Source: Phycisphaerae bacterium (GTDB lineage: Bacteria > Planctomycetota > Phycisphaerae > Sedimentisphaerales > UBA12454). Taken from it: a stretch of 64,000 bases of DNA. The notes under the pieces were generated by a model. That model had not been told where the DNA came from. It did no database searches and saw only the letters and a list, made by a program, of their open reading frames with translations. Location: contig JBGOWI010000005.1 in assembly GCA_041478555.1 (NCBI GenBank), positions 20,365 through 84,364 on the forward strand, read 5' to 3'. Position numbers and translations under genes: made by a program. Shown here piece after piece: positions 2,958 through 63,006 of this stretch. Position 1 is the first letter of the stretch, and every line of letters starts with the position of its first letter.

Positions 2958-3017
2958 GTTCACCCCGTTAGAGAACTTTTTCTTTTTCGGTTTCTTTCGT
3001 TCTCTAACGGGGTTCAC
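2958..3017. mobile_element. Miniature inverted-repeat element (CCCGTTAGAGAAC...GTTCTCTAACGGG) with 6-bp direct repeat GTTCAC
   Basis: gttcac 2958-2963, 13-bp perfect inverted termini bounding 2964-3011, gttcac 3012-3017. Confidence 0.7.
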
Positions 3018-3114
3018 AGTCAGAAATGATACTTATACCAGAAAAATTGCTGTTATTCCAGTATCAAATAAACCTGCGTCAAAGAAGACTTGTGGTATCG
3101 GGACGTGATGGCTG

Positions 3115-3969
3115 TTACTCTTTGGTTCCTTCGAGCCAGTATTCTGACATAATCTGCAAGTCCTTGGTGTCAACAGGGCCGTCGCCGGTCAGGTCGGTGC
3201 CGAGCCGGCAGTTGGCATTTGGGTCACTATAATAGTTATTGGGGTCATTGCAGTTGCAGAGCCAATCTGCAGCTAAAAGAGCAAAATCATGGAAATCGGT
3301 AGTGCAGTCCAGGTTGATATCGCCACCATCAGAGGCATCTTCGCACAGGACAAGTCCGTCAATGGCAAAATAGGACTCGTAAATTATATCACAAAAATCT
3401 GTTACGCTTATTGTCAGGTCATAAGTTCCAGCCTGATTGGCGTCGAAGGTGTATTCAAATCTTTTCCATCCCTTTGTTGAGCCGTAATTATTTACGTCGG
3501 CTACCGATATGTGGATAACTGGTATGCTTAGATTTGGATCTTCTATTAGTATAAGTTTTATTTCTCCATAGTCGTCGAATCGCAGATAATCGCATGTTCC
3601 GAAGAAATAAGCTCCGGTAAGTTTATTTCCGGGGTTTATGGTGATCTGCTGCCATATCTTGGCGTATTGTGGTTCGGGGGAAAAATTACCTGTACTAAGT
3701 GTAAGAAAGTAGTTGCCCTCGTACGGATAAAGTCCAATTTCGGGATCGATCTGCCATTGGGACGGGCTTCCTCCGCTTACCGGATTAGGAACAAAGTGGT
3801 GAACAACAGCAGTGTAGTTTTCATGCTGCCAGCCGGTAGGCGTGTTGAAATCGGGATTCGTATCGAAGAGTTCAAATCTTCCGTTATAAGGTGCAGATAT
3901 GACTTGTGTGGTTAGAAAAACAGAAAGCAGGCTAATGGCACCCCAGAAATGTGCACATTTACAATTCAT
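3115..3969 (-). CDS. Secreted hypothetical protein with C-terminal dockerin-like repeats
   Basis: 284 aa; signal peptide; GDINLDCTTDFHDFALLAADWL and TDLTGDGPVDTKDLQIMSEYWL. Confidence 0.8.
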   Translation of the reverse strand: MNCKCAHFWGAISLLSVFLTTQVISAPYNGRFELFDTNPDFNTPTGWQHENYTAVVHHFVPNPVSGGSPSQWQIDPEIGLYPYEGNYFLTLSTGNFSPEPQYAKIWQQITINPGNKLTGAYFFGTCDYLRFDDYGEIKLILIEDPNLSIPVIHISVADVNNYGSTKGWKRFEYTFDANQAGTYDLTISVTDFCDIIYESYFAIDGLVLCEDASDGGDINLDCTTDFHDFALLAADWLCNCNDPNNYYSDPNANCRLGTDLTGDGPVDTKDLQIMSEYWLEGTKE

Positions 3970-4013
3970 ATTATCCTATAATGGCAAACAATACCACTGT
4001 CTCGATTGTTTAT

Positions 4014-4042
4014 ATTATAATCCCGCGGGTGCAGAAAATCAA
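4014..4042 (-). promoter_or_regulatory. sigma70-type promoter for the 3969 gene
   Basis: TTGATT-17 bp-TATAAT on minus strand about 45 bp upstream of ATG. Confidence 0.6.
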
Positions 4043-4371
4043 GAAAAATCGGCACCGGAGGGTTTTTATACGGTAAGGACAGTATTTTTAAGGTCTTATA
4101 AAGAGTTGCTTAAGGAGGAGGGGGTGTTTGTATTTGCGGGCCTGGAGGTGCGATATCAACGCAGATGTTTCATAGCAGTCTTTCGCAGCATTTTTCTTAA
4201 CTGTCGAACAAGAGGGTTTCTCGGTGCCGGTTCAAGTATGCCCAGAGCCGGCCTTCGGCAAAAAATCAGGACTTTAAGCATAAGTTTTTCGACGAATGCA
4301 GGTGCTTTCAATCTGCCGAAGAGCAATCTGCTGTAAAAAAAGATTTGCAGTAAGTCGAAGATTTTTTTCAT

Positions 4372-4761
4372 TTGTCCGTGTGTCATAAAGACAGGCTTTC
4401 TTACGTGGCGCAGGTTCTTGGGGAAATGCAATATAATGATTTGCTCCAGCAGGTCTGCAGAAAGACAAAAAACGTTTTAATAGCGGGCAATCCGAAAGGC
4501 AGACAAAGGCCTGAGTACTACCTGGAATTGGCCTGGCTGAGCCAGCGGCTCAGTGAGGTTTCTGATGCAATAGACTTTTATGAACGTGCGCTGGATTTGA
4601 ATTATGCCAACGTTTACTGGAGGATGGATTTTGCCGAGTTTCTGGCTCAAAATGGTCGGCCCCAAAAGGCCGCCGAGCAGGCCCGTATATGCCTTAGAAT
4701 CAAACCAGGTTTCGACAGGGCTGAAGGATTACTTGCTGAGCTATTAACTCGGAAAGAATAG
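4372..4761 (+). pseudogene. 3' fragment (TPR region) of a paralogue of the O-antigen ligase/TPR gene
   Basis: DRLSYVAQVL..YANVYWRMDFAEFLAQNG..ARICLRIKP..AEGLLAEL aligns by eye with KRLKYVAGML..YGNADLRLKFAKALAENG..LRICLKLKP..AEKLLAEL of 13735-16299; TTG start without RBS. Confidence 0.6.
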
Positions 4762-4797
4762 AACCTCTGAGGGGATTTTTTCTTTTGCTATAAAGCA

Positions 4798-4914
4798 GTA
4801 AACCCCCACACTTTTACAGAAAACCACGGCTGTAAAGCTGTGGATGAATGCGATTATTCCCCCACACAGGCGAGGAATAGGTAGAGCCATACCGATAAAG
4901 GTGTGGGGGTAAAG
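4798..4914. mobile_element. Miniature inverted-repeat element (CCCCACAC...GTGTGGGG) flanked by GTAAAC/GTAAAG
   Basis: 11/12 inverted termini bounding 4804-4908; internal hairpin ccacggctgtaaagctgtgg. Confidence 0.6.
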
Positions 4915-5169
4915 AGGAGCATCAAATTAACACAATGTGGATAGCGTATTGTTTTAATTGTTTATAGGACTTAATTTTTTGATGATGTGAAATCTTCAGG
5001 AGGTTATGTCAGATTTTATTTTGTTTGTAAGTCTTTGTAAATGAAAGGCATATACAGTAAAAAATTTTTTGCATGAGGAGTATTTCGTAGATTGGGTTTA
5101 TATTTATGGTGGTTTTAGTCAATTATGGCTATGTAGGGAATTTTTAAGTATTTAGAGTTGATTATTGGC

Positions 5170-5198
5170 TTGACAAAGTCGCCTGATTTTGGTATTTT
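5170..5198 (+). promoter_or_regulatory. sigma70-type promoter of the LRR gene
   Basis: TTGACA-17 bp-TATTTT with TG extension. Confidence 0.6.
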
Positions 5199-5323
5199 AT
5201 AGGTTGTGTATAATTTAGGGAAAGTAGAGAAGAAAGGGAATGTAGTACTTTTATTTTGTGGGTGATACCACAGATTCCGGCTTAAGAACCGAACTGGATG
5301 CGATAGCATAGGAGGTAATAATT

Positions 5324-6493
5324 ATGAAACGCATATTTGTTTTTTTATTGGTTTTAGCAGTTGCCGGTATTTCTCAGGCAGCACCGGTAGTATTTAATGA
5401 CCCCAATCTCAAGGCTGCCGTCGAGGCCAAGCTTGGTATAACAGACCCAACCGCGACAGAGATGTTGTTGTTGACTTCTCTTGATGCCAACTCGCTGGGG
5501 ATTTCCGACCTGACAGGGCTTGAGTATGCGACAAATCTGACAACTCTTTATCTTTGCAACAATATTTTCGGCGACCTCGGTCCGCTCTCCGGCCTGACAA
5601 AGATGAAATATCTTTACCTGTGGGGCAATCCCCATATTACCAGTTTGTCCTCTCTTGCAAATATGAGCGATTTAAGGTATCTCAGGGCGTCCGGCTGCAA
5701 CATCGCTTACATCTACGTGGTATCAAATTTCAAAAAACTGGAGTGGTTGCATTTAAGCGATAACCTGATTTCCAATATAACGCCCGTGGCCGATATTAAT
5801 TCCCTTAAGTATTTGTACCTTTCTCTCAATGATATCTCAGATATTAATGTCTTGGCAGACCCGGATGTAAACAACATCAGGGAACTGGACTTGTCCGACA
5901 ATTTTATCTCGGATATAAATGCGCTTTCGGGTTTAACAAACCTAGTGAATTTGAAGCTGCGTTACAATGACCTCGGTAATATAAACCCGCTTTCGGGTTT
6001 GACAAAACTTCAGTATCTTTACCTGTCGGGCAACGATAATATTACAGACATCAATGCCGTGAAAAATATGAACAGCCTGGTGGAATTGGCACTTACCGAT
6101 GTCAATATAAGTGATATTTCTCCGCTTGCTGATGTTAATCAAATTAAGTACTTGTGGCTTGGATACAATCTAATAGAGGACATAAAGGCACTGACGAAAT
6201 TCAACAACCTGACTACACTCAATCTTAGTTATAATCCATTGAGTTTTGAGTCATGGTGTGTTTATCTTAAGCAGATTATCAATAACAAGCCCTCTGCCAC
6301 TATACTCTGTAATGTGCTTCTTAATGACCGTTTTACTGATATGAATGATATGCAAACTTTTGCCAGTAAGTGGTTGAGGCAAAATTGCAGTCTTGCCAAT
6401 GGCGATTGTAGCGGTGCGGACTTTGACGAGTCCGGCGAAGTGGACTTTTGGGATTTTGCTGTTTTCGCCAATTGGTGGATGTATCAGCCTTAA
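5324..6493 (+). CDS. Secreted internalin-like leucine-rich repeat protein with C-terminal dockerin-like domain
   Basis: Signal peptide, FNDPNLKAAV cap, about 22-aa LxxLxLxxNxIxDI repeats, ADFDESGEVDFWDFAVFANWW; RBS GGAGG. Confidence 0.9.
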   Translation: MKRIFVFLLVLAVAGISQAAPVVFNDPNLKAAVEAKLGITDPTATEMLLLTSLDANSLGISDLTGLEYATNLTTLYLCNNIFGDLGPLSGLTKMKYLYLWGNPHITSLSSLANMSDLRYLRASGCNIAYIYVVSNFKKLEWLHLSDNLISNITPVADINSLKYLYLSLNDISDINVLADPDVNNIRELDLSDNFISDINALSGLTNLVNLKLRYNDLGNINPLSGLTKLQYLYLSGNDNITDINAVKNMNSLVELALTDVNISDISPLADVNQIKYLWLGYNLIEDIKALTKFNNLTTLNLSYNPLSFESWCVYLKQIINNKPSATILCNVLLNDRFTDMNDMQTFASKWLRQNCSLANGDCSGADFDESGEVDFWDFAVFANWWMYQP

Positions 6494-6514
6494 AAGGTTT
6501 ATTTTGTGATACAT

Positions 6515-6544
6515 AAAAGGCCGCTGTAACAGGCGGCCTTTTTT
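6515..6544. terminator. Bidirectional intrinsic terminator
   Basis: aaaaggccgc-tgtaacag-gcggcctttttt between convergent genes. Confidence 0.8.
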
Positions 6545-6548
6545 ATTT

Positions 6549-6575
6549 GCCGCGGTGCGACCGCGTCGCAACGGG
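6549..6575. repeat. Intergenic copy of the 27-bp palindromic repeat
   Basis: Exact reverse complement of 2042-2068. Confidence 0.9.
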
Positions 6576-6738
6576 TGCGCTCAAGGCAAACAGGCAACTC
6601 TGCCGATAAAATAAGGAGAGCCGAAAAGGCTCTCCTTATGACTCAGTTCGCTTTCAAAGCAGACCGGCGGGACTTCGTCGAAAACCAAACCTGCTCGTGC
6701 GAACCGCAGAGGTTTAGTTCGGCAGGCTCACTACAGGT

Positions 6739-7578
6739 TTAAATTCCAAAAATAATTCTTAATCGTTTCGTCAGACCTTGCGGCAGAATTGCCGCTATTG
6801 AACGAATTAGCACATTCCGCAGAAACTGCCGTCTGTTTACAAAGCCGATTTTCAGAAATTCTTTTTGCAGTCTTATCTGCTGAACGGCTCTTTTGAGGCC
6901 GCTTCGTCTTTTGAGAAGCTCTTTTTCCCACCTGTGATAATAAAGCACCTGCCCAATGGTCGCCATTTTAGCGCCGTTTAGAAGCATTTTTGCCCAAAGG
7001 AGGTAATCCTCAAGACCGGCAAAAGGCATATAATTTCCTGCTTCCAGAACGGCTTTTTTGCGAAACATACTCGGGGCGTGATTCATACAGAATCTAAACC
7101 TGAACTTTTTTTCTATCTCATTATGGAGCAGGGGGCTGCGTCTTACAAACAGAACCTTTTCAGGACTCCGCTCAAAAGCGGCGAGATAACAGCTTACCAC
7201 GTCGATGTCAGGATTATTTTTTAGAAACGTTAATTGTTTTTCGAATCTTTGCGGCGAACTTAAATCGTCGGCATCCATTCGGGCGACAATGTCAAAACTG
7301 CACTTTTTTATGCCTTCGGCAAGGGCAATGCCAAGTCCCTTATTTTCTTCGAGATTTATAACTTTTAAAAGACCGTCTGTTTTTTGTTCGTATTCGTTGA
7401 TTACCTCTTCAAGCTCCGCACCGACAGGTCCATCCTTAACCAGCACAATCTCATTCGGCTTTGCAGTCTGAGCAAGAACGCTGTCAATCGCATCTCTGAA
7501 AAATTCAGGCTTGTCCTTCTCGTAAACGCTCATAAGGACGGAAAATTTCGGCAGGTTTTTATCGTTAAGCGGACTCAT
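6739..7578 (-). CDS. Glycosyltransferase family 2
   Basis: FSVLMSVY, VLVKDGP, ARMDADD, EDY motifs. Confidence 0.92.
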   Translation of the reverse strand: MSPLNDKNLPKFSVLMSVYEKDKPEFFRDAIDSVLAQTAKPNEIVLVKDGPVGAELEEVINEYEQKTDGLLKVINLEENKGLGIALAEGIKKCSFDIVARMDADDLSSPQRFEKQLTFLKNNPDIDVVSCYLAAFERSPEKVLFVRRSPLLHNEIEKKFRFRFCMNHAPSMFRKKAVLEAGNYMPFAGLEDYLLWAKMLLNGAKMATIGQVLYYHRWEKELLKRRSGLKRAVQQIRLQKEFLKIGFVNRRQFLRNVLIRSIAAILPQGLTKRLRIIFGI

Positions 7579-7583
7579 ATCTT

Positions 7584-8729
7584 TTATAAGACTCCGAGTT
7601 TCCGGTAAACTTCGACAAGTTTATCGACCATTTTTTCGCTCGTGAAATTCTTCTGCCACTTTTCAAAACCGGCTGTTCTCATCGGTTCGAAGTCTCCGGC
7701 CTTGTGTGTAAAAACATATTGCAGAAGGTCGGCCAAACCTTTTGGGTCTTTTGGCTTGCAGAGCAGACCCGTTTTTTTATCGTCGATAATTTCTCCCACG
7801 CCTCCGGTATTGCTTGCGATAACCAGCTTCCTAAGGCTCATCGCCTCGAGTATGCAGTTTGGCACGCCTTCGCTGTCGGACGGCAGAACGACCACCGATA
7901 TTCCTACAAGGGCGCTGAAAACATCTTTAGTGTAGCCATAAAATTCAATCTGGTCGGAGACACCAAATTTGCCAGCCAGTTTTTTTATTGCTGATGTATT
8001 ATTTTGTTTTTTACTGTCGGAGATTTTTGCGGCCAATTCGCCGCCGATAAGTCTGACCCTGATTATCAAATTCTTTTTCTTCAGTATGGCCATCGCCTTT
8101 ATAAGACAGTCGTGTCCCTTGCCCTGCGCAAAATTTGCAACCATGGCAATTCTTGCCGGCAGAGGTTTATCAGGTTCATCGCAAGGTTCATCTGGCTCGC
8201 CTATCTGGTCCCTGCCGTTTAAAAGTACGACGACTTTATTAGGATTGACTTTAGAGCAATTAATAATTTCGTCAGCGAGGTATTGACCGTTTACGACGTA
8301 ACAGTCAACCCAGCGGCTGGTAAGTTTGTCGAGCAGATGACAAAGTCTTTTTTTCCAGTTGGGATTTAAAGTGCCGCTGATGGATACTTCTGCACGCAGT
8401 ATATGCCGGATAGCATCTCTTTTTTTCCGGACGGCCCTGGCTATGAAACTTTCTATCAGAGGTGTTTGTATGACTGCGACATCTCTGTCTTTCAGTATTT
8501 TTGAAACTTCTTTTGCCGCAGAAAGTATTTTTGCCTTGCCCATAGGAACAGCAAACACCTCAAAACCGCGGGCGGCAAAGGCCTGCGCAAAGGGCGAATG
8601 TTTGTCCGAGGTTATAAGGACAGGTTTGAAGCAGCCTCGCGAAAACAACTTCTCCGCAAGCTTTACAATCTGCCATTGGATGCCACCCATATTCGCCGTA
8701 CTTTGTCTTATAAAAACAATCTCTTTCAT
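7584..8729 (-). CDS. Glycosyltransferase family 4
   Basis: KGHDCLIKA, VVVLPSDSEGVPNCILEAMS, ASNTGGVGE. Confidence 0.92.
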   Translation of the reverse strand: MKEIVFIRQSTANMGGIQWQIVKLAEKLFSRGCFKPVLITSDKHSPFAQAFAARGFEVFAVPMGKAKILSAAKEVSKILKDRDVAVIQTPLIESFIARAVRKKRDAIRHILRAEVSISGTLNPNWKKRLCHLLDKLTSRWVDCYVVNGQYLADEIINCSKVNPNKVVVLLNGRDQIGEPDEPCDEPDKPLPARIAMVANFAQGKGHDCLIKAMAILKKKNLIIRVRLIGGELAAKISDSKKQNNTSAIKKLAGKFGVSDQIEFYGYTKDVFSALVGISVVVLPSDSEGVPNCILEAMSLRKLVIASNTGGVGEIIDDKKTGLLCKPKDPKGLADLLQYVFTHKAGDFEPMRTAGFEKWQKNFTSEKMVDKLVEVYRKLGVL

Positions 8730-8735
8730 ATATTC

Positions 8736-10223
8736 TTAAAAGCCTTTTGTGTAAAGATAAACGGCCAGCAGCACAAATAACGAATATGCAGACAACATAA
8801 TTATGTTCTTCCATTGTTTTTGTTCTGCTATAAGGCTTTCTATTCCTGCGCCCATGATGATAAAAGCTATAGGCGCAAGCGAGTCTCTGTATCTATAAAT
8901 CGTCGGCTGCAGTCCTCCGAGCAGTAGAGTTGGAATGATTATCACGGTGATATATGCCAGCAGGAAGGCTAAAAACTCTGTGCGTCTGTCGATTATTATA
9001 ACGGTTCCGATTATCAGAAACGGCAGGCCGAGCCACCATTGCCAAATATCAGCCTGCAGAACAATGTCGTGAAGACCATTTTCAGGCGCAAAGATATTAT
9101 AAAGCTTTCTTGGCGGCGGATTTAGTATGGCAAGCGGTATATTAAGCAATCTAAGCGGTCCCTGTGATTTGTATATTTTGTCCAACACCTCACGCTTGCT
9201 CAGACACTCCTCTTGTATCATGGTTGTGTATCTGTCCAACATATTTTCGGCTTTACCTGTCAGTTGATTAAACTGATAAAAAAAGATTATGGTGCCGAGT
9301 GATATCATTGACAGAACAGCGACAGTTTTTCCGGCGGGATTACTTTTATACCTGAAACAAATAGCAATGGGAACTGTGGCAATAAACATCAGTCCGTACT
9401 CGAGCCGAATCCACATAAGCAGAATAATTGCTACTATGATTGATAGTATTGCCGAAAGAGGTTTTTTGTTGCGAATTATTATTGCAATGCCGAAAACCAT
9501 CATACTTGCCGCAAAGATTATCCATATTTCCTTAAGGAATCGGACCGAATAAAAGGCCGTCTGCGGAGCTATAACGGAGAGTAGTGAAACAATTGTTGAA
9601 GTCTTTCTGCTGAAAAGCTCCTCGGCAGCCAGTGTTACAATCGCGGCGGAAAACGCGCCCAAAAATGCTCCGACAATTCTGCACCAGATAAATTCGTCCC
9701 CAAAAAACCTGAATATTCTTGACATCAGAAAACTTGTCCTGTGTGCATTTTTCGTAAACTCAGGCAAGTTTATAAATTCAGGAATTGTTATATTTTTATA
9801 AACCTGCGCATGATAGGCATAGAAAAATTCGTCCGCCTGAAGTAAAGCCGAATCATAGTGCCTTATCCATTGATAAGTCCTGATCCGGTCATCATTGCAC
9901 ATATATATATCTGGTGATGCGGTCTCCATAACGAAAACAAGGCATATTCTCAAAAGCAGGGCAGCTGCGAAGGTAAAAGCTGCCATTTGCGAGCCTTTTA
10001 ATCGCAAGAGAAGAAACCCTGCGACCGCTGCTGCACAGAATATAGTAATATTAAGAACCACATTGGTGGCATCGTTAAGTTTGGCTACAAACAAAGGCAG
10101 AATTGCAAGTAAAGCCATCGCGGCCAGTATTACAAAAATCTGATATTCAGCCGTATCGCCCCAAAAAGTCGCTATCGCCTTAAAAAATCTGCTTATGATA
10201 TTGTCATTATGGTTCTTTGGCAT
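8736..10223 (-). CDS. Polytopic membrane protein, putative Wzy-like polymerase or GT-C glycosyltransferase
   Basis: About 12 hydrophobic segments, LKE and YRYR motifs, position in polysaccharide cluster. Confidence 0.6.
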   Translation of the reverse strand: MPKNHNDNIISRFFKAIATFWGDTAEYQIFVILAAMALLAILPLFVAKLNDATNVVLNITIFCAAAVAGFLLLRLKGSQMAAFTFAAALLLRICLVFVMETASPDIYMCNDDRIRTYQWIRHYDSALLQADEFFYAYHAQVYKNITIPEFINLPEFTKNAHRTSFLMSRIFRFFGDEFIWCRIVGAFLGAFSAAIVTLAAEELFSRKTSTIVSLLSVIAPQTAFYSVRFLKEIWIIFAASMMVFGIAIIIRNKKPLSAILSIIVAIILLMWIRLEYGLMFIATVPIAICFRYKSNPAGKTVAVLSMISLGTIIFFYQFNQLTGKAENMLDRYTTMIQEECLSKREVLDKIYKSQGPLRLLNIPLAILNPPPRKLYNIFAPENGLHDIVLQADIWQWWLGLPFLIIGTVIIIDRRTEFLAFLLAYITVIIIPTLLLGGLQPTIYRYRDSLAPIAFIIMGAGIESLIAEQKQWKNIIMLSAYSLFVLLAVYLYTKGF

Positions 10224-10224
10224 A

Positions 10225-20264: not shown

Positions 20265-21028
20265 TTTCACCTTGACCCTCCGAAAAGAAATAAAATCACC
20301 CTTATGGGGATTGATATTTTTCAGCCCCGAAAATTTGTCTTTCAATGACGCCCCACCAAGGCAGTTAAAAACACCTTTTTCGACGAAGTTCACTTTTTAA
20401 CACCTCTCAAATAAAGACCTTACGCCCTGTTCGCAAGATCGATAAATCAAAGCAGCAATGTAAAGCTGGATTTACCCAGCTTCTCACTTTTGCCTATTTT
20501 AACACATAGAGTCAAAAAAGTAAAGCAACTTACGTTGTTATAAGGTCTTATGGCAAAAAAATCGCAGGTTTCGCACCTCAAATCAGCAAATTATAGGACG
20601 GCCTTTAAATCTTTTTTTGTCGCAGATATTTAGCTCGCCGATTTATTTGGCGGGTTTCATTTGTAGGTTGGCCTTGCCGTCATTTATCCGCCTTCGGCGG
20701 ACTATGGCAGTTTATTTAGCCCACAGTTTTATCCGCTACTGTTTACCCGCCATCGGCGGGGCGGATTCACGGATGGTCATTTTTCGCGGGACAACTTTTT
20801 TATTTCATAATTTAATTAAGACGCCACACTATCCGCAGACAGTTTGAACTGCTTGGGTCCTTGTTTTTAGTACTGAAAAATGGGCAAAATTTTATCTTCT
20901 TGTCCGATAAACCTTAAAGTTTTTATCTCTAAAGGCCGAAAAATCCAATATAGGACTTTTCCTTTATGCGCTGAAACTATGGTTTTTAGTGCTAAAAAAC
21001 GCGTTTTGATTGAATAAGGGATTATCCG

Positions 21029-22411: not shown

Positions 22412-22951
22412 TTATTCAAAATTAAGTACTGCAAATTCGCCCCGATATTTCTTTGCCGCCTCATCGTAAGCCTTTGCCGCTTCTATTTCATCGTCAAAAT
22501 AGCCCAGATGTATTTTACGTCCCTTATGTGGCAGGCGGGCGCACCATTTATTATGTTCTTTGTGCCGGCAAACTCCTTTATATTTTGACGTGCCTTCGTT
22601 AAATCCCTGCTCGTTGTTCCAGTTGTTCTCTTGGGTGGTAACGATTCGCAGATTCACCCTGCGGTTATCTAATCCGTTGCGGTTTTTATGGTCGATGAAT
22701 CGGCCTTCCGGCGGCGGCATAATATACCGGTGCATAAACATAATCTTCCTGCCGCCATTTCGCCCTGCATAAAAAGCGCCTCTATGGTTGATGGCGTACC
22801 ATTTGTATTTGCTCAGCCGCTCGAAATCTTCCACATCTACTATTGCATATTTTCCCTGCGTCAGTTTAATGACTCTGAATGTAAAACCGTATTGCCTCCT
22901 GCGGTGCCAAAGCGCGATTTTGACTAATAGTTTTTCTATTGCCGCAGGCAC
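22412..22951 (-). CDS. HNH endonuclease / AP2 domain protein
   Basis: MHRYIM..IDHKNRNGLDNRRVNLR (HNH_3-like); SKYKGV..KWCA..HLGYF..EAAKAYD (AP2); start uncertain. Confidence 0.88.
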   Translation of the reverse strand: MPAAIEKLLVKIALWHRRRQYGFTFRVIKLTQGKYAIVDVEDFERLSKYKWYAINHRGAFYAGRNGGRKIMFMHRYIMPPPEGRFIDHKNRNGLDNRRVNLRIVTTQENNWNNEQGFNEGTSKYKGVCRHKEHNKWCARLPHKGRKIHLGYFDDEIEAAKAYDEAAKKYRGEFAVLNFE

Positions 22952-23487: not shown

Positions 23488-25326
23488 ATGAAGAAGAATC
23501 TCATACTGACCATATTAGTGCTGTTATTGTCTATCGCCATCGCTGCACTGGCCGGTGAACCATTCATGCTGAAGGATATTTATCCGGCATCGGCAAGCTC
23601 AAATCCTCAGTACCTGACGAATGTGAACGGCACATTATTTTTCCAGGCTGGCGACGGCACAAACGGCACTGAACTATGGAAAAGCGACGGCACCTTCGCT
23701 GGCACTGTAATAGTAAAGGATATAAATCCGGGGGCAGGACACTCAAACCCTTGGTACCTGACGAATGTCAACGGCACATTATTTTTCATGGCCAACAACG
23801 GCACAAACGGCTATGAGTTATGGAAAAGCGATGGCACCGCGGCCGGAACGGTTATGGTAAAGGATATATATCCGGGCTCGTCTGGCTCATACCCTGATTC
23901 CCTGACGAATGTGAATGGCACAGTATTTTTCAGGGCCGACGACGGCACAAACGGCTCTGAGTTATGGAAAAGCGACGGCACATCGGAAGGCACAGTAATG
24001 GTAAAGGATATAAACCCAGGTGCGGGAAGCTCATATCCTGCGTACCTGACGAATGTCAACGGCACATTATTTTTCATGGCCGACAATGGCACAAACGGCT
24101 ATGAACTATGGAAAAGCGACGGCACCCTGGCCGGCACTGTATTAGTAAAGGACATAAATCCGGGAACAGGAAACTCATACCCTGCAATACTGACGAATGT
24201 CAACGGCACATTATTTTTCTCGGCCGACGACGGCACAAACGGCACTGAACTTTGGAAAAGCGACGGCACTGAGGCCGGAACTGTTATGGTAAAGAATATT
24301 AATCCATCAACAGACTCATATCCTATGTACCTGACGAATGTGAACGGCACCCTGTTTTTCGAGGCCATCGACGGCACACACGGCTTCGAACTGTGGAAAA
24401 GCGACGGCACTCCGGCTGGCACTATTATGGTAATGGATATATATCCGGGAGCGCTGGGTTCAAACCCTCAGTACCTGACAAATGTCAACGGCACCCTGTT
24501 TTTCGCCGCCTACAATGGCACTAACGACTATGAACTATGGAAATGTGACGGCTCACCCACAGGAACCGTAATGTTGGTTAAGGATATATATCCGGGCCCC
24601 ACAGGCTCATATCTTGATAACCTGACAAATGTGAACGGCACCCTGTTTTTCAGGGCCAACGATGGCACAAACGGTCATGAATTATGGAAAAGCGACGGCA
24701 CTTCGGCCGGCACCGTTATGATAATGGATATATATCCGGGGGCAAATGCCTCAGGCCCTCAATACCTGACAAATATAAATAACCTGCTTTTTTTCACAGC
24801 CACCGACGGCATATACGGCTATGAGTTATGGATGTATTTATTGAACGACGAATGTCAGGCCAGTCTGAAGGTTGAGACGGGCAGCATTTACTATGGTTCA
24901 AATTTTGGCGCGGAAGGAACTGATTTGACAAGCTGTGCTTTTAATGACTACGCGGATGTCTGGTATTCTTACCAGCCGCAGATGGCCGGCGAATATACTA
25001 TCACCGCTGGCAGCGATGAATTTGATACGACTCTTGCCCTCTTTAATGCCTGCAACGGCAGCGAGCTCGCCTGTAATGACGATTACTATATGACTACCGA
25101 TTCTCAGCTCAGCTACAATATGATAAAGGGCAAACTCTACTACATCCGTGTCGCCGGCTACGATGGTCAGATGGGAAATTATCAGTTGTCTGTTACTGCC
25201 GGCTCCTGTGCAGAATGGGCGTCAAGCGACCTTAATGGCGATTGCGTTGTGGATATGCAGGACTTTGCCATAATGGCCTCTGAATGGCTGACCTGCCATA
25301 AAATCCCTGCAGAACTATGCCAGTAA
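23488..25326 (+). CDS. Secreted ELWxxDGT repeat protein with PPC-like and dockerin-like C-terminal domains
   Basis: Signal peptide, nine repeats of about 48 aa (LTNVNGTLFF..ELWKSDGT), DVWY..FDT.L..ACNDD..YYIRVAG, SDLNGDCVVDMQDFAIMASEWL. Confidence 0.9.
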   Translation: MKKNLILTILVLLLSIAIAALAGEPFMLKDIYPASASSNPQYLTNVNGTLFFQAGDGTNGTELWKSDGTFAGTVIVKDINPGAGHSNPWYLTNVNGTLFFMANNGTNGYELWKSDGTAAGTVMVKDIYPGSSGSYPDSLTNVNGTVFFRADDGTNGSELWKSDGTSEGTVMVKDINPGAGSSYPAYLTNVNGTLFFMADNGTNGYELWKSDGTLAGTVLVKDINPGTGNSYPAILTNVNGTLFFSADDGTNGTELWKSDGTEAGTVMVKNINPSTDSYPMYLTNVNGTLFFEAIDGTHGFELWKSDGTPAGTIMVMDIYPGALGSNPQYLTNVNGTLFFAAYNGTNDYELWKCDGSPTGTVMLVKDIYPGPTGSYLDNLTNVNGTLFFRANDGTNGHELWKSDGTSAGTVMIMDIYPGANASGPQYLTNINNLLFFTATDGIYGYELWMYLLNDECQASLKVETGSIYYGSNFGAEGTDLTSCAFNDYADVWYSYQPQMAGEYTITAGSDEFDTTLALFNACNGSELACNDDYYMTTDSQLSYNMIKGKLYYIRVAGYDGQMGNYQLSVTAGSCAEWASSDLNGDCVVDMQDFAIMASEWLTCHKIPAELCQ

Positions 25327-55420: not shown

Positions 55421-55433
55421 CTAACCGCCTAAA

Positions 55434-55622: not shown

Positions 55623-55630
55623 GTTATATA

Positions 55631-55666
55631 TATGACTATTTTAGTCCTACTTAAAAAATCTGTCAA
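55631..55666 (-). promoter_or_regulatory. sigma70 promoter with overlapping Rrf2-type operator
   Basis: TTGACA-17 bp-TAAAAT; palindrome GACTAtttTAGTC at 55634-55646 covers the -10. Confidence 0.8.
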
Positions 55667-55790
55667 TACTATTTTTTATTTTTTTCATCCCGCATCTACT
55701 TTGAGGTGGTTGCATTAGACTATTTTGCAAAAGTTGCTTAAGAATGGTTAGTTTATCGTTTTTGTTTACAATGCCAAAGTAGGTGCGGGA

Positions 55791-56603: not shown

Positions 56604-56611
56604 GGGAGCTG

Positions 56612-56640
56612 ATGGTAATTTAAGAGAGGCTTAGTGTCAA
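56612..56640 (-). promoter_or_regulatory. sigma70 promoter directly upstream of the lipoprotein ATG
   Basis: TTGACA-17 bp-TACCAT, 8 nt before ATG. Confidence 0.6.
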
Positions 56641-56666
56641 CGCCTCAATGGCGGCAGCAAATCCTG

Positions 56667-57035
56667 TTAAATATCAAACTGCGGCCTGGTGCAGAATTGA
56701 AAGGCAATGTGTTTTTTGCTGGCTTTCGGTTCGACTGAGCTCGCCGAAGTCTGCTCGGGCTGCAAATCAACTATCCTTACAACACGTGCGTATGCTGAAA
56801 CCTTGCCGCCAAACCGGTCGGCACTATCGGCATCAGGTATGTCCAGCTCGACATTGAAAAGGTCACCAGTGTCCATAATCGCGTTCTGGCTGCTTTCCAC
56901 CAAAAGACCATCAGGACTGATGTCTACAGTACTGCCGCTAAAGATATGGTCATGTAATGAGCCGACTTTTCGACAGAATATGCCTACCCTGACAGGCAGG
57001 CGTCTGTGCTTCCTCCTCTCATTGCCTCCTCTCAT
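56667..57035 (-). CDS. PilZ domain protein
   Basis: ERRKHRR (RxxxR) and DISPDG (DxSxxG), ARVVR, IAFQF. Confidence 0.9.
   Translation of the reverse strand: MRGGNERRKHRRLPVRVGIFCRKVGSLHDHIFSGSTVDISPDGLLVESSQNAIMDTGDLFNVELDIPDADSADRFGGKVSAYARVVRIVDLQPEQTSASSVEPKASKKHIAFQFCTRPQFDI
56728..56752. repeat. GACTTCGGCGAGCTCAGTCGA palindrome in frame inside the PilZ gene
   Basis: Encodes TSASSVEP; matches 25812-25836 at 24/25. Confidence 0.85.
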
Positions 57036-57100
57036 TGCTTCCGTGCCTTAATATTAGTTTAAAAATGTCAAAACCTTCATTCTTTTCTTATAGAGACTAT

Positions 57101-57117
57101 TGCAAATAATATACCAA
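57101..57117 (-). promoter_or_regulatory. Putative sigma54 promoter of the PilZ gene
   Basis: TTGGTATATTATTTGCA (GG-N10-GC); palindrome TGTCGTTtaaaAACGACA at 57229-57246 as candidate activator site. Confidence 0.6.
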
Positions 57118-57417
57118 CGAGACAATCTCAAAAATACCCCATTTTAACTTGTTTAAGAGCTTTCTTAGAATGGGCTTACAAACGTTTCGTTGCTAATTTT
57201 AAACCTGGGAAATTGTAAAATTAGCAAATGTCGTTTAAAAACGACAACAAAGGCTATGCTGGAATAAATAAAAACAGCAGTGTAAGTATCAAATCAAGTC
57301 TCCTGATATATAAAAAAGTCATAAGATATTGTTTATAAATATGTTATGATTAAGAAGACCGGCAGCGAGGGTATGTTTTTTTAAAGCAGCATTGTTGATT
57401 TTTTGCAACATGGAAGA

Positions 57418-57447
57418 TTGACAGATACTGCTAACATTTTCTATAAT
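57418..57447 (+). promoter_or_regulatory. sigma70 promoter of the two-component operon
   Basis: TTGACA-18 bp-TATAAT, 8 nt before ATG 57456. Confidence 0.75.
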
Positions 57448-57455
57448 ACTGCATT

Positions 57456-58556
57456 ATGTCCAATACTGGTCGACAAGACACTTCGATTAAAGAGCTTGGC
57501 AAAGGGGCGGAGGAGGGTTTTGCCCCTGCTGTTTTGCAGTCACTGCCGGTTGGGGTTATCGTGTTTGACAAAGAACTTAAGATTCTAACTGCAAATTCAT
57601 ACGCTTCTGACCTTATAGATGTACGAACAACCGCCGACGTTACACTCGCAATCGGAACTAATGAAAAAATCTGGGGAAACTGGCGCAAAATACTGCGGGA
57701 AGTTATAAAAGACGGCAAAATCTGTCGGTTTGATAATGTGAGCTATTGTCTTGCAGACAAAATGTCTCTATTGCAGATAACATGTGCACCGCTGAGAAAA
57801 TCATCGGCTGATTCAATACAGGGCGGCCTTATCATGCTGGAAAATATGACCGAAAGAGCAAATATCCAAAAGCAGCTTGCAAATATTGAAAGGCTTGCCG
57901 CTCTGGGAAAGCTCGCAAGCAAGGTGGCACACGAACTTAATAATCCAATCGACGGGATAATGCGATACATCAATCTGGCAAAAAGAGCCATCAGCGAAGA
58001 AGGGCTGTCAAAGCCCGTCGAGTACCTTGAACATGCCGGGGAGGGACTGAAAAGAATGGTACAGATTATTACAGAACTGCTTGAGTTTTCACGAAGCAGA
58101 TATTCGACTCTCGAGGATACACCTATGGATAAAATCATCGACGATGCAATCAAATTTGTTGAGCCGAAGGCTGTGGCAGCAGGGGTAGAAATCGAACGCC
58201 AGTTCAAGTCGCCTCTGCCGAAAGCAAGAGGCGGAAACCTCTTTCAAGTGTTCTGTAATCTGCTCAAGAACGCAGTTGAGGCAATGCCCGACGGCGGAAA
58301 GGTAACAATAAGCTGCGGTGTTTCTGATGATAATATTGCAGTAATAAAGTTTCGGGATACAGGACCGGGATTTGAGCCGGCAAACAGTGAAGCAATTTTT
58401 GAGCCCTTCTTTACGACCAAGACGGGCGGCAAGGGCACCGGGCTGGGGCTTGCTATCTGCAGGGATATCATAGAAAAGTACGGCGGAAAAATCACCGCTC
58501 AGAATGCACCCAATGTCGGCAGCATATTTACAGTCTATCTGCCGTTGAATAAATAA
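57456..58556 (+). CDS. PAS-containing cytoplasmic sensor histidine kinase (NtrB-like)
   Basis: VAHELNNP, QVFCNLLKNA, DTGPG, FEPFFTTK, GTGLGL. Confidence 0.93.
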   Translation: MSNTGRQDTSIKELGKGAEEGFAPAVLQSLPVGVIVFDKELKILTANSYASDLIDVRTTADVTLAIGTNEKIWGNWRKILREVIKDGKICRFDNVSYCLADKMSLLQITCAPLRKSSADSIQGGLIMLENMTERANIQKQLANIERLAALGKLASKVAHELNNPIDGIMRYINLAKRAISEEGLSKPVEYLEHAGEGLKRMVQIITELLEFSRSRYSTLEDTPMDKIIDDAIKFVEPKAVAAGVEIERQFKSPLPKARGGNLFQVFCNLLKNAVEAMPDGGKVTISCGVSDDNIAVIKFRDTGPGFEPANSEAIFEPFFTTKTGGKGTGLGLAICRDIIEKYGGKITAQNAPNVGSIFTVYLPLNK

Positions 58557-58641
58557 AAAGAGAAATAGCCGCGAAGGCACGAAGACACAAAGGAAGAAAC
58601 AGGTAAAACAAAAGAATACAAAAAACGAAAATTTGGAATCT

Positions 58642-60030
58642 ATGAAGAACAGCAATATTTTAATAGTTGACGACGACAGGATAATACTTGATTCGCTTTG
58701 CGAGTTTTTAAAACTCGAAGGTTACAGCACTGTCGGAGCCGAATCATACAAACAGGCGGTAAACCAGATACAAAAACAAAAATTTTCTCTCGCCGTTGTT
58801 GATGTCAATCTGCCGGACGGCAGCGGTTTCGAGCTGCTCAATTTAGTCAAAAAAAATCATCCGCAGACCGTTGTGATTATTATCACTGGTTACGGTACAA
58901 TTGAAAGCGCCGTCGAGGCAATCAAGATGGGGGCTTACGATTACCTTACAAAACCCATTAATGATGACGACTTACGGCTGGCTGTCGAAAGGTCGCTGAA
59001 ACAGCAGTCGCTTATCAGCGAAAACGAAAATCTCAAAAGCCAGCTTGAACGCAAATACAGCCTTGAAAATATCATCAGTCAGAATTACAAAATGGCTAAA
59101 ATCTTCGACCTTGTCGAGGCTGTTGCGGACAGCAGGTCAACTATCCTTATGACAGGGCCCAGCGGCACGGGAAAAACTATTCTGGCAAGAGCGATTCATT
59201 ACCGCTCCGGAAGAAAGGATAAACCATTCGTCGAGGTAAGCTGCGGTGCTCTGCCGGAAACTCTGCTCGAAAGTGAATTGTTTGGACACGTAAAAGGCTC
59301 TTTTACCGGCGCTATCAGCGATAAACAGGGAAAATTTCTTGCCGCAGACGGAGGCACAATTTTTCTCGATGAAATCTGCAGCGCTTCGGCGGCCCTGCAG
59401 GTAAAGTTTCTGCGCGTCATTCAGGAAAGACAGCTTGAGCCTGTCGGCAGCAACAAAACTATTACCGTCGATACTCGCTTGATTGTCGCCTCGAACAAAA
59501 ATATACTCGAAGAAGTAAAACACGGCAGGTTCAGAGAGGATTTGTATTACAGAATCAATGTAATAACAATAAACCTTCCGGCACTTAACGAAAGACCGGC
59601 CGATATCCCACTGCTTGCCGAGCATTTTATGAAAAACTTCTGCATATCGCATAACCGTGCAAAGCTGGGAATTACCGAGAGGGCAATGGATGCCCTGCAG
59701 AGATATAACTGGCCGGGAAATGTACGTGAACTCGAAAATGTTTTGGAAAGAGCGGTCCTCTTGAGCAAAACAGACTATATCACATTAGAAGATATACCTG
59801 TCAATATAACCTCTCACATGGTCGAAATCAGTCCGGAAGATTATAAAAACATAAGTCTCAAAAACGCGATTGTCGAACCGGAAAGAAAAATTATCAGAGC
59901 AGTCCTTGAGGCAAACAACTGGAACAGACAGCTTACGGCAAAGGCCCTTAATATCAACAGAACCACTCTTTATAAAAAAATGAAAAAATACGGACTGGAA
60001 GCGGAAGCTGAGAGGCTGGGAATAAGGTGA
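58642..60030 (+). CDS. sigma54-dependent response regulator (NtrC family)
   Basis: REC domain, GPSGTGK, ESELFGH..GSFTGA, FREDLYYR, WPGNVREL, Fis-type HTH. Confidence 0.95.
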   Translation: MKNSNILIVDDDRIILDSLCEFLKLEGYSTVGAESYKQAVNQIQKQKFSLAVVDVNLPDGSGFELLNLVKKNHPQTVVIIITGYGTIESAVEAIKMGAYDYLTKPINDDDLRLAVERSLKQQSLISENENLKSQLERKYSLENIISQNYKMAKIFDLVEAVADSRSTILMTGPSGTGKTILARAIHYRSGRKDKPFVEVSCGALPETLLESELFGHVKGSFTGAISDKQGKFLAADGGTIFLDEICSASAALQVKFLRVIQERQLEPVGSNKTITVDTRLIVASNKNILEEVKHGRFREDLYYRINVITINLPALNERPADIPLLAEHFMKNFCISHNRAKLGITERAMDALQRYNWPGNVRELENVLERAVLLSKTDYITLEDIPVNITSHMVEISPEDYKNISLKNAIVEPERKIIRAVLEANNWNRQLTAKALNINRTTLYKKMKKYGLEAEAERLGIR

Positions 60031-60116
60031 AAAAATCCGGCAGACAGAGGACAGAAAATTTTGCTCGTTCTCGCGACAAAAGCAATTTTTAGGAGCCGCC
60101 TTAATTTTTTCGGCTG

Positions 60117-61949
60117 CTAATAGAACCAATTCCCGGCAAAAACGGCGAAGTCTTTCATATTCACGAAACAATCATCGCCAGTCAGGTCGCCTGGACATCC
60201 AGGCGTTGGCGGCTGCAGCCAATTTTCAACCAGCACCTGCAAATCCTCAAAATCCACATCCCTGTCTTCGTCAAAATCACCGGCGATAGCACCGAAAAGG
60301 GCAACAAGTTCGATACCGTTACCGGTACCGAGGTTGCGGGAATATTGTTTGTCGATAGAGTTGTTCCAGTGCTCGTGGACGCCAAGACTGGACAGTCGCG
60401 TTCCGTCCCTTTCAGGGTCGTAAAATGTTTTTGAGCAGGGGTCATTCGCCAGTGCCGCCTCGTGGAGGTAATCATCGGTTCCTGCATGAGCCGGGCCGTT
60501 GGGATCAGGCCATTCGGTAACGAGAAAGTCAAAACCCACAGAGTCGATGGCCACCATGTCCTGCGAGGCAAAAATGCTTGAAGGCCAATCATTATTAAAT
60601 GGCGCCATCTGCCATTTCAGCGGAACTGGAGAAGTAAACGGAGGGATCGTTTTCCCGTGCTGGCCCGCATATAACCCATCAATGAGGCAAAGCAGCGTCT
60701 TGTCGCCGAGATGGCGATGCCCCATCAAGTCTACCAAATCCCTGTACTTGCCGCTGGCTGGAACGCTATAGGCACAATCCGAGTGCATATCATAATATCC
60801 GCTGGCATCCGGTCTTCTGAGAGAGCCGAAATGGTTTTTTGCACAAAGGGTAATTCCCGCCACGTTGTAATGGCCTTTTAGAGAGGGCAGATTGATAAAG
60901 TATTCTGCGTCCACATACGATTGCATAACATGGTCCTGCGTTTTACCGTTGGCATGCGTGGTACTCCAGTAGAAATTGACGTCGGAGGGCGTGGCTTGGG
61001 TCCGGTTATACCAACCGAGATAATCCAGATAATGAACGTTCGGGAAATCCGGCTGAATCATATCGTAGAATTCATTGCACCATAAGCAGGTTGGGTCGCC
61101 AATAGCAATATCAGACTCGGATACTCCGACGACGTTCACAAGCTGGTCCAGCAGTGCATGCATAATCTGGGGTGAGCATATCGGATAGTCAGGATGGTGG
61201 TTGACGCTGACAAAGTTATAATCGGTGGCGCCGGCGTCCCCCCTTACGGCTATCATATCCACAAAATTGACTTTAATCATAATTTTCTCGCCGCTTGTGT
61301 ATCCCACGTCTGGCTTACCGTGTTCTTGATTAAAATATAGAAAAAGAGCGTTCCACGCCTCTGCAACATCCACTTCCCCGGTCAGCGTACAAATGGTACG
61401 CTGTATCATCGAGTTAATAACCTGCTGATTGGTATGATTGCTCTGCCACCAATACCCATCACCCGTACCCGGACCATTCCAAGTAGTAGCATTCGGGTCG
61501 TGCACCCAAACTACTCGGCCTGGATGAACTCCTCTGGCAACTCCTATGGGGCTGTTTGCAGGTGATGAGCCGGCTGCCTTTGTCTGTTTATCCGTGTTAA
61601 ATGTCAGGCAAAGCCATACACACCCGATACTAACTGCTACACACAATAATCCGCTAATGTAGCGTGAACGTGAAAAATGACTTTTTGCCTTACGAAAAAC
61701 TGCCGCCGAACCACCCAAACCCAGAAGCCAGACGATAAAACCCGATGCAAGCGGAAAAGCAACTCGTTGACAGGGATAAGTTATTCGTGAGGGTTTGGGA
61801 ATCACCCGTATCAACGTCCAGATTAACGCCAGCAGGCCGACCACCGGAAACAGCCATATCAACCAGCGGTGTTTTCTCTTACCTTTAATATGCTTGCCCG
61901 TCCTGGGACAAATCGATATGCCAGACTTTTCTTCTCGAAACCTTATCAT
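60117..61949 (-). CDS. DUF362 domain exported protein with dockerin-like C-terminus
   Basis: RVIPKPSR..YPCQR, PGRVVW, KIMIKVN, INLPSLKGH..TLCAKNHFG, GDFDED..GDLTGD..DFAVFAGNW; ATG at 61949 with RBS AAGGAGG. Confidence 0.85.
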   Translation of the reverse strand: MIRFREEKSGISICPRTGKHIKGKRKHRWLIWLFPVVGLLALIWTLIRVIPKPSRITYPCQRVAFPLASGFIVWLLGLGGSAAVFRKAKSHFSRSRYISGLLCVAVSIGCVWLCLTFNTDKQTKAAGSSPANSPIGVARGVHPGRVVWVHDPNATTWNGPGTGDGYWWQSNHTNQQVINSMIQRTICTLTGEVDVAEAWNALFLYFNQEHGKPDVGYTSGEKIMIKVNFVDMIAVRGDAGATDYNFVSVNHHPDYPICSPQIMHALLDQLVNVVGVSESDIAIGDPTCLWCNEFYDMIQPDFPNVHYLDYLGWYNRTQATPSDVNFYWSTTHANGKTQDHVMQSYVDAEYFINLPSLKGHYNVAGITLCAKNHFGSLRRPDASGYYDMHSDCAYSVPASGKYRDLVDLMGHRHLGDKTLLCLIDGLYAGQHGKTIPPFTSPVPLKWQMAPFNNDWPSSIFASQDMVAIDSVGFDFLVTEWPDPNGPAHAGTDDYLHEAALANDPCSKTFYDPERDGTRLSSLGVHEHWNNSIDKQYSRNLGTGNGIELVALFGAIAGDFDEDRDVDFEDLQVLVENWLQPPTPGCPGDLTGDDCFVNMKDFAVFAGNWFY

Positions 61950-62128
61950 CTTTCCGCCTCCTTTTGCCCCCTCTTTTGCAACGAACAATACTTTCTAATA
62001 AAGAGGAACAGATTAACCAATTATACCCTTGATTTTGTAAAAAAGCAAGGAAAAAGAGTAAAAAAGACGAGATTTGCGACTAAAAGTCATCCGCCTCTGG
62101 CGAGACCTCGCCGTTAGGCGGGGTGGTA

Positions 62129-62935
62129 TTACAAAAGATTTTGTTTTACATATTTGATGGCGTTGTCAAAGATTGTTCTGCCGTCGGCTCTGGTTTTGTC
62201 ATTCAATCTTGTCCAGTGCGGGTGCTGAGTGTGTCTTACAAATCTTTCAGGATGAGGCATAAGCCCTAATACTCTGCCGGTTGAATCACACAGACCTGCG
62301 ATAGAATCAGTCGAACCGTTGGGATTTATCGGAAATGGGCCGGTATTGCCGTTTTCGTCAACATATCTGAATACAATTCGGCCATCTGCCTTCAGTCTTT
62401 CAAGCACTTCATTATTTTCAAAGACAACCTTTCCTTCGCCGTGAGCTATCGGCAGATAAATTCTTCTGTCAGGGTCGATGAAGATACACTTTCTGCCTGA
62501 AGGTTCAAGATATACCCATCTATCCTCGAATTTACCACTGTCGTTGTACGTGATTGTTATCTGCTGTCTGCCTGAAGGTTCGATTTTACCGAGGATGCCG
62601 GTCTTTACAAGGACCTGAAAACCGTTACAGATGCCCAGGACGATTTTGCCTGATTCTATAAAGGCGTTAAGTCTGTCGGAGAGATGATGAATAATCTGGT
62701 TTGCAAGGATTTTGCCTGCAGCGACGTCGTCGCCGTAACTGAAACCGCCCGGAATGACAAGAATCTGGAAGGTATCGAGAATATCAGGGCTTTCAATGAT
62801 TCTGTTTATATGGATTCTCTGTGCCTGGCAGCCGGCAAGCTCAAGTGCGTATTGCGTCTCCACATCACAATTGATGCCCGCTGCTCTTAAAACCAGTGCG
62901 TTTACCCCGTTAGAAATTTTTCCCTTCTGTATCAT
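62129..62935 (-). CDS. purQ: FGAM synthase glutaminase subunit PurQ; present start codon lies inside an inserted element
   Basis: LRAAGINCD, PGGFSYGD, LGICNGFQ, AHGEG, NPNGS, LMPHPER. Confidence 0.95.
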   Translation of the reverse strand: MIQKGKISNGVNALVLRAAGINCDVETQYALELAGCQAQRIHINRIIESPDILDTFQILVIPGGFSYGDDVAAGKILANQIIHHLSDRLNAFIESGKIVLGICNGFQVLVKTGILGKIEPSGRQQITITYNDSGKFEDRWVYLEPSGRKCIFIDPDRRIYLPIAHGEGKVVFENNEVLERLKADGRIVFRYVDENGNTGPFPINPNGSTDSIAGLCDSTGRVLGLMPHPERFVRHTQHPHWTRLNDKTRADGRTIFDNAIKYVKQNLL

Positions 62936-63006
62936 ATTATTGCCTTGTTAGGAATTTTCCATTTTTATATCACATTCCCCGTTTTAGAATTTCTAACGGG
63001 GTTTAC
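62900..63006. mobile_element. 95-bp inverted-repeat element (CCCGTTAGAAAT...) with GTTTAC direct repeat inserted in the 5' end of purQ
   Basis: gtttac 62900-62905 and 63001-63006; termini cccgttagaaat / atttctaacggg. Confidence 0.8.

Follow-up and report, generated by a model that had tools for sequence, protein, structure and literature searches.

Several families of miniature transposable elements with inverted repeats (MITEs), such as Correia/NEMIS, RUP and ERIC, are short, non-coding and present in many copies, with inverted-repeat ends, target duplications and, in some cases, effects on neighbouring genes. The present study concerns a superfamily of mini-transposons met in a window of 64,000 nucleotides—the whole stretch of DNA analysed—from a Phycisphaerae bacterium of the order Sedimentisphaerales (GenBank assembly GCA_041478555.1, contig JBGOWI010000005.1, positions 20,365 to 84,364), in which small inverted repeats beginning with CCC and ending with GGG are flanked by repeated hexamers. 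Such a hexamer is a 4-bp target duplication placed between a base of the element's own terminal pair and a native base. Unlike Correia/NEMIS, RUP and ERIC, the elements comprise several end types that share only YCCC, units as small as 21–26 bp and a branch that rebuilds gene starts. Sedimentisphaerales-like Planctomycetota and Omnitrophota, the groups concerned, have not been cultivated, and descriptions of their mobile DNA are scarce.

The words "start codon", "ribosome" and "IS1380" are absent from a 2024 review on prokaryotic MITEs (PMC10969869), and full-text literature searches yielded no paper whose title or abstract describes the element family or a MITE that seeks start codons. The same review presents the Rickettsia palindromic elements as palindromic, without a known transposase and tolerated within genes (PMC10969869). 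The elements studied here are likewise palindromic, and no transposase was found for them; they differ, however, in having clear 4-bp duplications and defined CCC..GGG ends, and in being mostly intergenic or located at start codons. [quoted passage not shown] REPs and the present elements are alike as small, GC-stemmed, intergenic hairpins, and a RAYT gene is present in the source genome, but the present elements duplicate their target and lack the GTAG tag, whereas the hairpins of the RAYT gene in this genome are of a different, two-copy sequence; an identity with the REP/REPIN–RAYT system was rejected on these grounds.

The core sites of tyrosine recombinases, such as dif and loxP, are laid out as arm, spacer and arm. 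A hypothetical end-to-end junction of the present elements would resemble them in reading arm, 6 bp, arm, although four of its six spacer bases would come from the target; there is no linked recombinase, and no such junction was seen. The IS1380 family of insertion sequences (IS) has ends starting with CC(C) and duplicates 4–5 bp. The piggyBac transposons, to which IS1380 is an outgroup, have termini of CCC and duplicate the 4-bp target TTAA, only rarely another 4-mer (PMC10813416). With both of them the elements share the CC(C)..(G)GG ends and a 4-bp duplication with outer T..A, but the centre of their core is free (TGAA, TAAA, TCAA, CGAG), never giving TTAA or YTAR, the searches revealed no gene for a transposase bordered by such ends, and element-rich genomes lack IS1380.

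Insertions and their four-base duplication

The source genome, G000 (2.41 Mb in 91 contigs, 45% G+C, 98% complete by marker genes), contains the window as C3:20365-84364. The labels G001–G005 denote genomes of the same genus, whose syntenic regions were located and then aligned to the sites in the window. Elements 1–3 of the window are real insertions: in same-genus genomes the site is unfilled and the hexamer stands there once; clean empty sites were found at six loci, i.e. these three and three more on contig C28. The inverted-repeat arms of elements 1–3 are 10–14 nt long and perfect or near-perfect, and an Rfam scan gave no match over the elements of the window.

Element 1, belonging to the CCCGTTAGA family, is a 48-bp hairpin (CCC..GGG at 2964-3011) that occupies 2963..3012 with its terminal C..G pair and is bounded by two copies of TTCA, at 2959..2962 and 3013..3016, so as to read GTTCAC-CCC..GGG-GTTCAC. 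It is intergenic, with a hypothetical gene on one side and, on the other, a metallophosphoesterase gene (2150-2926, minus strand) whose start is 38 bp downstream of it; exactly 54 bp are missing in six relatives, and G003 has a single GTTCAC. Element 2, of the CCCCACACC family, follows a TPR gene and its terminator; it covers 105 bp (CCCC..GGGG at 4804-4908), or 4803..4909 with the terminal C..G pair. The two copies of its duplication, TAAA, are at 4799..4802 and 4910..4913, and the reading is GTAAAC-CCCC..GGGG-GTAAAG, the last G (4914) being the native flank, as in G003, where the empty site is a single ATAAAG. A partial copy of its own end is present inside element 2 (4859-4872). In G001, another CCCCACACC-family member, whose interior is unrelated, fills the site; this site, filled differently in one relative and empty in another, is either a hot spot or the place of an old insertion that diverged fast. 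Elements 1 and 2 (region 2000-6000) are both spanned by contigs from each of four other sediment metagenomes, with no joint that skips either of them, and both are therefore fixed in those strains.

Element 3, again of the CCCGTTAGA family, measures 95 bp (CCC..GGG at 62906-63000) and spans 62905..63001 with its terminal C..G pair, between copies of TTTA at 62901..62904 and 63002..63005; it reads GTTTAC-CCC..GGG-GTTTAC. About 101 bp are missing in G003 and G004, which read GTTAAT and TCTTAT. The element interrupts a PurQ-like gene (minus strand, following a PurL-like gene) 12 bp inside its 5' end. The 101 inserted bases shift the frame, the native ATG at 63016-63018 (minus strand) thus being out of frame, while an ATG inside the element (62933-62935) is in frame and now heads the open reading frame (ORF), the first four residues having been replaced by ten new ones. 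A fourth, decayed member of 101 bp, from the family CCCGCA..TGCGGG, has CCC..GGG at 55689-55789, extends over 55688..55790 with a T..A terminal pair and is flanked by the cores TTCA and TTAA, which match at three of four positions.

A preliminary description of the window had assigned these insertions to a single duplicated 6-bp target, GTTYAC/GTRAAC. The five sequences given there were all confirmed, the three strong elements do start with CCC and end with GGG, and the empty sites on which it had made its proposal depend were found for elements 1–3. In order to place the flanks against chance, CCC..GGG inverted repeats with 10-nt arms, at most one mismatch and at most 460 bp were collected from the whole genome. 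The flanking hexamers of the resulting 422 pairs agree at 0, 1, 2, 3, 4, 5 and 6 positions in 56, 117, 100, 64, 23, 45 and 17 pairs, respectively, that is, at five or six positions in 62 pairs, and 68 pairs have the same four bases at the centre of both hexamers. Ten control registers were used: with the right flank offset by between 1 and 20 bases, or by −1, identical cores occurred in only 1–8 pairs, whereas the tenth register, −2, gave 21, a register artefact of CCCC runs. The flanking repeat thus exceeds chance, as had been proposed, but the duplicated segment is 4 bp long and not 6.

The left hexamer consists of a native base, the 4-bp duplication and the element's terminal base, and the right one of the terminal base, the duplication and a native base; the repeat looks 6 bp long only where the native flank bases happen to equal the terminal pair. 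Of the 91 mismatches in the 85 pairs matching at four or more positions, 37 fall at position 1 and 34 at position 6, compared with 3, 6, 4 and 7 at positions 2–5. An identical 4-bp core together with a complementary Y..R terminal pair is present in 63 of the 68 pairs, divided almost equally between C..G (32) and T..A (31). The ownership of the terminal bases can be read at individual loci. At C28:11093, the filled site is ATGAAT..ATGAAG and the relatives read ATGAGG, ATGAAA and ATGTTG; a native ATGAAG having become ATGAAT..ATGAAG, the T is therefore the element's own. A 24-bp hairpin nested in another member of the family has changed TTGAAT into TTGAAT..ATGAAT, and the A is therefore its own base, while the empty site of element 2 in G003 ends with G, like the right copy, so that the C adjoining element 2 belongs to the element.

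The target reconstructed from the 63 pairs is R-TNNA-Y, with T at the first core position in 54 and A at the fourth in 58, the outer flank being A or G on the left in 45 and T or C on the right in 47. The cores, collapsed over both strands, comprise at least 11 different 4-mers, i.e. TGAA (23), TAAA (17), TCAA (9), CGAG (4) and seven rarer ones, and the hexamers around them are diverse (ATGAAT, GTTGAC, GCGAGC, ACAAAT and others). One conserved hexamer thus does not hold for the genome: GTTYAC/GTRAAC is the core class TAAA/TTTA joined to a C..G terminal pair, its outer positions being native and terminal bases, and GTTTAC is not generally enriched before CCC in the genome. It should be pointed out that a palindromic target preference and a terminal base pair can together mimic a longer duplication, which affects the reading of MITE flanks generally.

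The 63 duplication-bearing pairs are 21–257 bp long. At the lower end of this range, an identical 21-bp hairpin was observed with TAGA flanks at two unrelated loci, C20:38172-38192 and C1:106834-106854; its insertion adds 27 bp (21 plus the terminal pair and the duplication), a number divisible by three, and each of the two sites appears coding-like. A second census, in which repeated hexamers of any sequence around perfect 8-bp inverted repeats were counted with a limit of 500 bp, yielded 39 cases genome-wide, 18 of them starting with CCC and finishing with GGG. These 18 have three end types, CCCGTTAGA, CCCGCACC and CCCCACACC. In the genome as a whole, the three types comprise 31, 112 and 44 pairs, which overlap to some extent in register. 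The genome contains 36 copies of the motif CCCGTTAG and 39 of its complement, most of them arranged as inverted pairs at short distance with direct-repeat flanks. One insertion process with variable cargo, as the preliminary description had it, is common to elements with different ends and unrelated interiors. With regard to annotation, roughly 150 small hairpins in the 2.4-Mb genome are insertions rather than regulatory palindromes.

The same duplication is found independently outside this genome. A 21-nt end pattern matched 120 stretches in public genomes, of which 80, with 82 ends, were examined; an identical 4-bp core with a complementary terminal pair accompanies 49 of the 82 ends. Among these 49 elements, the hexamers agree at position 1 in 24 cases and at position 6 in 11, and 21 elements are of the C type (e.g. 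ATGAAC..GTGAAT). For 12 ends without a partner, the explanation is a decayed copy, the end of a contig or a chance match in an unrelated bacterium, and the pattern has no match in viral contigs. The superfamily is spread over many genomes of two phyla.

Elements at start codons

An ORF of 80 aa or more begins next to 20 of the 63 duplication-bearing elements, whereas this is so for 1.5% of 20,000 random positions. In other species, including many genomes recorded as Omnitrophota, 40 of 49 elements adjoin an ORF of at least 60 aa. The elements concerned form the CCCGCACCTTCT branch, the target of which in other species is A-TGAA in 33 and A-TGAG in 6 of 49. The terminal A or G of such an element, joined to the duplicated TG, re-forms ATG or GTG; among the other species, T..A elements rebuild ATG in 24 cases and C..G elements yield GTG in 16. 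The gene-side end is AGAAGGTGCGGG, followed by the start, with a Shine-Dalgarno-like AGGTG 4 nt upstream. This AGGTG is complementary to CACCT near the 3' end of 16S rRNA, which in the source genome ends with ..GGATCACCTCCTTTCT.

Concerning the frames, a short one opens at the old start in 54 of 57 start-codon cases, and in-frame fusions number two of 57. The element length plus 6, taken modulo 3, falls into class 2 in 30, class 0 in 16 and class 1 in 8 of 54 cases. In class 2, the frame of the old start traverses the element and stops at the TGA of an ATGA in 19 of 30 cases, compared with 6 of 30 when the element is flipped. The interrupted gene thus probably stays translated, and a putative translational coupling would open the hairpin. 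The orientation of the branch with respect to its asymmetric core is fixed in 16 of 16 cases here and in 36 of 40 elsewhere. An Omnitrophota record (L134) carries two tandem start-codon elements, the second inserted in the GTGAA start rebuilt by the first.

Several insertions alter gene starts, as in the PurQ-like gene of the window, where the rescue of the frame by the ATG of element 3 is related to the start repair of this branch. Present in many species of two phyla, the start-codon branch offers a testable case of a selfish element designed to do no harm where a gene is most sensitive.

Candidate movers of the elements

With their terminal inverted repeats, their target duplications matched by single-copy empty sites and their many dispersed non-coding copies, the elements have the features of MITEs, while CC(C) ends combined with a 4-bp duplication are those of the IS1380/piggyBac type. 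We regard them as non-autonomous transposons of one superfamily that probably depend for their movement on a DDE transposase, of the IS1380/piggyBac kind and supplied in trans. Each unit is hairpin-forming DNA of 21 to about 260 bp with terminal repeats YCCC.../...GGGR of at least three end types, insertion copies 4 bp of the target, mostly TNNA, and the mover would be a transposase acting on CCC ends with a 4-bp staggered cut and absent from this assembly. A MITE of a DDE transposase had been offered as the alternative in the preliminary description; it is the better reading, albeit with a duplication of 4 bp instead of 6, and the absence of a partner enzyme gene from the window was noted correctly.

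The reaction in trans is suggested by the end geometry of IS1380 in the order, taken together with the CCC ends and 4-bp TTAA duplication of piggyBac. IS1380 matches occur in 56 of 151 genomes of the order and exceed the curated cut-off in 19. The copies have CCCGCA.. ends flanked by TTAA, TTAG or CTAG (TTAA-CCCGCATATTTCAT.., TTAG-CCCGCATTTCTCAC.. and CTAG-..), and those of a second IS1380 clade, CTAG-N-CCTYAAACAAGCG.., include one variable base, a geometry identical to that of the elements studied here. A further IS from the home family reads CTAA-CCCAACTTCC..-TTAG. In the source genome, self-comparison revealed no high-identity multi-copy IS.

A number of observations weigh against a mover of this kind. 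Neither DDE_Tnp_1 (PF01609) nor IS1380 (NF033539) has a match in the genome. Long copies enclosing a transposase or recombinase, for which a search had been proposed in the preliminary description, were not found in it either, the three pairs 300–8000 bp apart with matching cores being separate small elements or chance; the 80 external loci hold no long copy either, since every partner end lies 43–323 bp away. The sequence common to the ends of the elements and of the order's IS1380 copies is CCCGCA only. These copies duplicate YTAR or TTAA, whereas TTAA, CTAG, TTAG or CTAA is duplicated in none of the 63 elements, the outer T..A being kept nevertheless. A same-genus genome has a lone IS1380 copy, which is frameshifted and has different ends. 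With regard to co-occurrence, elements of about 100 bp with CCCGCACCT are present in 35 of the 151 genomes (18 of 25 in the home family); seven sampled genomes with 13–36 of them have no IS1380 over the cut-off, and ten genomes with full-length IS1380 loci (L016-L025) have none of the elements. Further, 21-, 24- and 26-bp units bear duplications at unrelated loci, two of them having an identical sequence, and a double-stranded element of 21–26 bp would be too short for both its ends to be joined in one transposase complex. The fixed orientation of the start-codon branch, finally, is not predicted by symmetric cut-and-paste without selection. IS1380 as a present-day mover in these genomes is unsupported by co-occurrence.

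Mobile units of about 25 bp without a partner transposase raise the question of how so short an element moves, and one answer would be a fold-back process, in which hairpin or cruciform DNA, its ends side by side, is moved by an unlinked or host structure-reading nuclease or recombinase, possibly an HNH-AP2 or an unrecognised protein. It would explain the tiny units—one of which is nested in another element—the lack of an autonomous copy in the genomes and loci of two phyla that were searched, and the fixed orientation at start codons; also in line with it, four of 105 CCGCC..GGCGG hairpins of 13 bp show the duplication pattern, where about 0.1 would be expected. The two weaker cases of the preliminary description, at 20741 and 23013, are mini-hairpins of this type with non-repeating flanks and are not among the four. 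The genome has 26 HNH_3 and 18 AP2 matches, and across the 151 genomes AP2 and the elements of about 100 bp occur together in 22, elements alone in 13, AP2 alone in 33 and neither in 83. This co-occurrence, however, tracks phylogeny and is weak outside the home family, and five genomes with 17–26 AP2 matches have zero or one element. None of the HNH genes of the genome is framed by element ends with a duplication, and no HNH-AP2 enzyme is known to transpose DNA. A fold-back mechanism is thus considered unlikely. Equally unlikely is its corollary, by which the start-codon branch would be an adapted parasite of translation starts that rebuilds the start codon and the ribosome-binding site. A DDE family other than IS1380 with 4-bp duplications, e.g. 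of the IS5, IS701 or ISH3 type, would account for the duplication and the inverted-repeat ends, and several further IS types are present in the order; nevertheless, the ends of IS5-, IS701- and ISH3-type elements start with GG, GA or CA and not with CCC, the ends of the further IS copies inspected are unrelated and DDE_Tnp_1, as mentioned above, was not found in this genome, which makes such an origin quite improbable.

The remaining two alternatives leave the DDE reaction aside. Conservative site-specific recombination, by a tyrosine or serine recombinase, between a target and a circle with the junction GGG-R-NNNN-Y-CCC and the same 4-bp core would, given a 4-bp overlap, produce identical junctions, the nested case included, and would suit the lineages with a constant core (the start-codon branch with TGAA, three copies of 56-57 bp with CGAG), the fixed orientation of the former and the seven Phage_integrase matches in the genome. 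Yet near-identical copies within one cluster differ in their core (TGAA, TTCA, TTTA, TACA), the CGAG group is found in both orientations and none of the seven integrase-family matches adjoins an element examined; moreover, a double-stranded circle of 25–30 bp would not be feasible. No joined, excised or circular form was present in the contigs of the four metagenomes, although contigs drop rare forms. The arm-6-arm layout likened to tyrosine-recombinase sites in the preliminary description is therefore not upheld, there being no linked recombinase, a core that varies among near-identical copies and no joined form in contigs, and a process of this sort is judged very improbable. Movement of REP/REPIN-like single strands by a RAYT (HUH) enzyme, with insertion 3' of a tetranucleotide that the element carries once more at its right end, would account for the tiny units, and the genome has one RAYT-type Y1_Tnp gene as well as common tetranucleotide-tagged hairpins (TTTA or CTTG before C-rich stems). 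Against this, the gene is flanked by its own, different GTAG-tagged hairpin, the two genomic copies of which are both there, Y1_Tnp occurs in 133 of the 151 genomes with or without elements and was not found in G001 (36 elements; 87% complete), and the flanking 4-mer varies among near-identical copies, so that this possibility appears very slight. The RAYT was rejected as the mover owing to its different flanking hairpin and a presence independent of the elements; elements derived from IS200/IS605, with one fixed tetranucleotide and no duplication, were also rejected, since at least 11 different 4-mers occur and vary within clusters.

Neighbouring features of the window and the genome

The window contains a homing-endonuclease-like gene with HNH_3 and AP2 domains at 22412-22951 (minus strand). 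The genome's matches to the two domains belong to two protein types, each with a conserved promoter-like upstream sequence and heptamer repeats around, and same-genus genomes have 14–21 AP2 matches each. Adjoining the HNH-AP2 gene of the window is a tandem repeat (23561-24868) with a unit of about 144 bp in six overlapping copies of 68–83% identity. Repeated 14-nt units (TTTACCCCGTGAGA, CTTGCCCCGTTAGA) in arrays, together with nested hairpins whose ends are CCCAGTTAGAT..ATCTAACGGGG, often adjoining HNH genes, are located at C19:870-2330, C91:~3690-3780, C74:20384, C81:24300 and C31:2551, and resemble ends of related elements that stand alone or are piled up.

The single RAYT-type Y1 transposase gene is positioned at C81:27472-27981, with the GTAG-tagged hairpin TAGGGGCAGAC..GTCTGCCC on both sides and a short tandem array of CCCTGTCTGCCCTGATACATTG after it. 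At the edge of the window, which cuts it, there is a c-di-AMP riboswitch match (1-93, minus strand). A 30-nt GC-rich palindromic repeat, CCCGTTGCGACGCGGTCGCACCGCGGCGAA, is present in the window as inverted copies at 2042-2071 and 6546-6575, and occurs also on at least four other contigs and in other genomes of the family.

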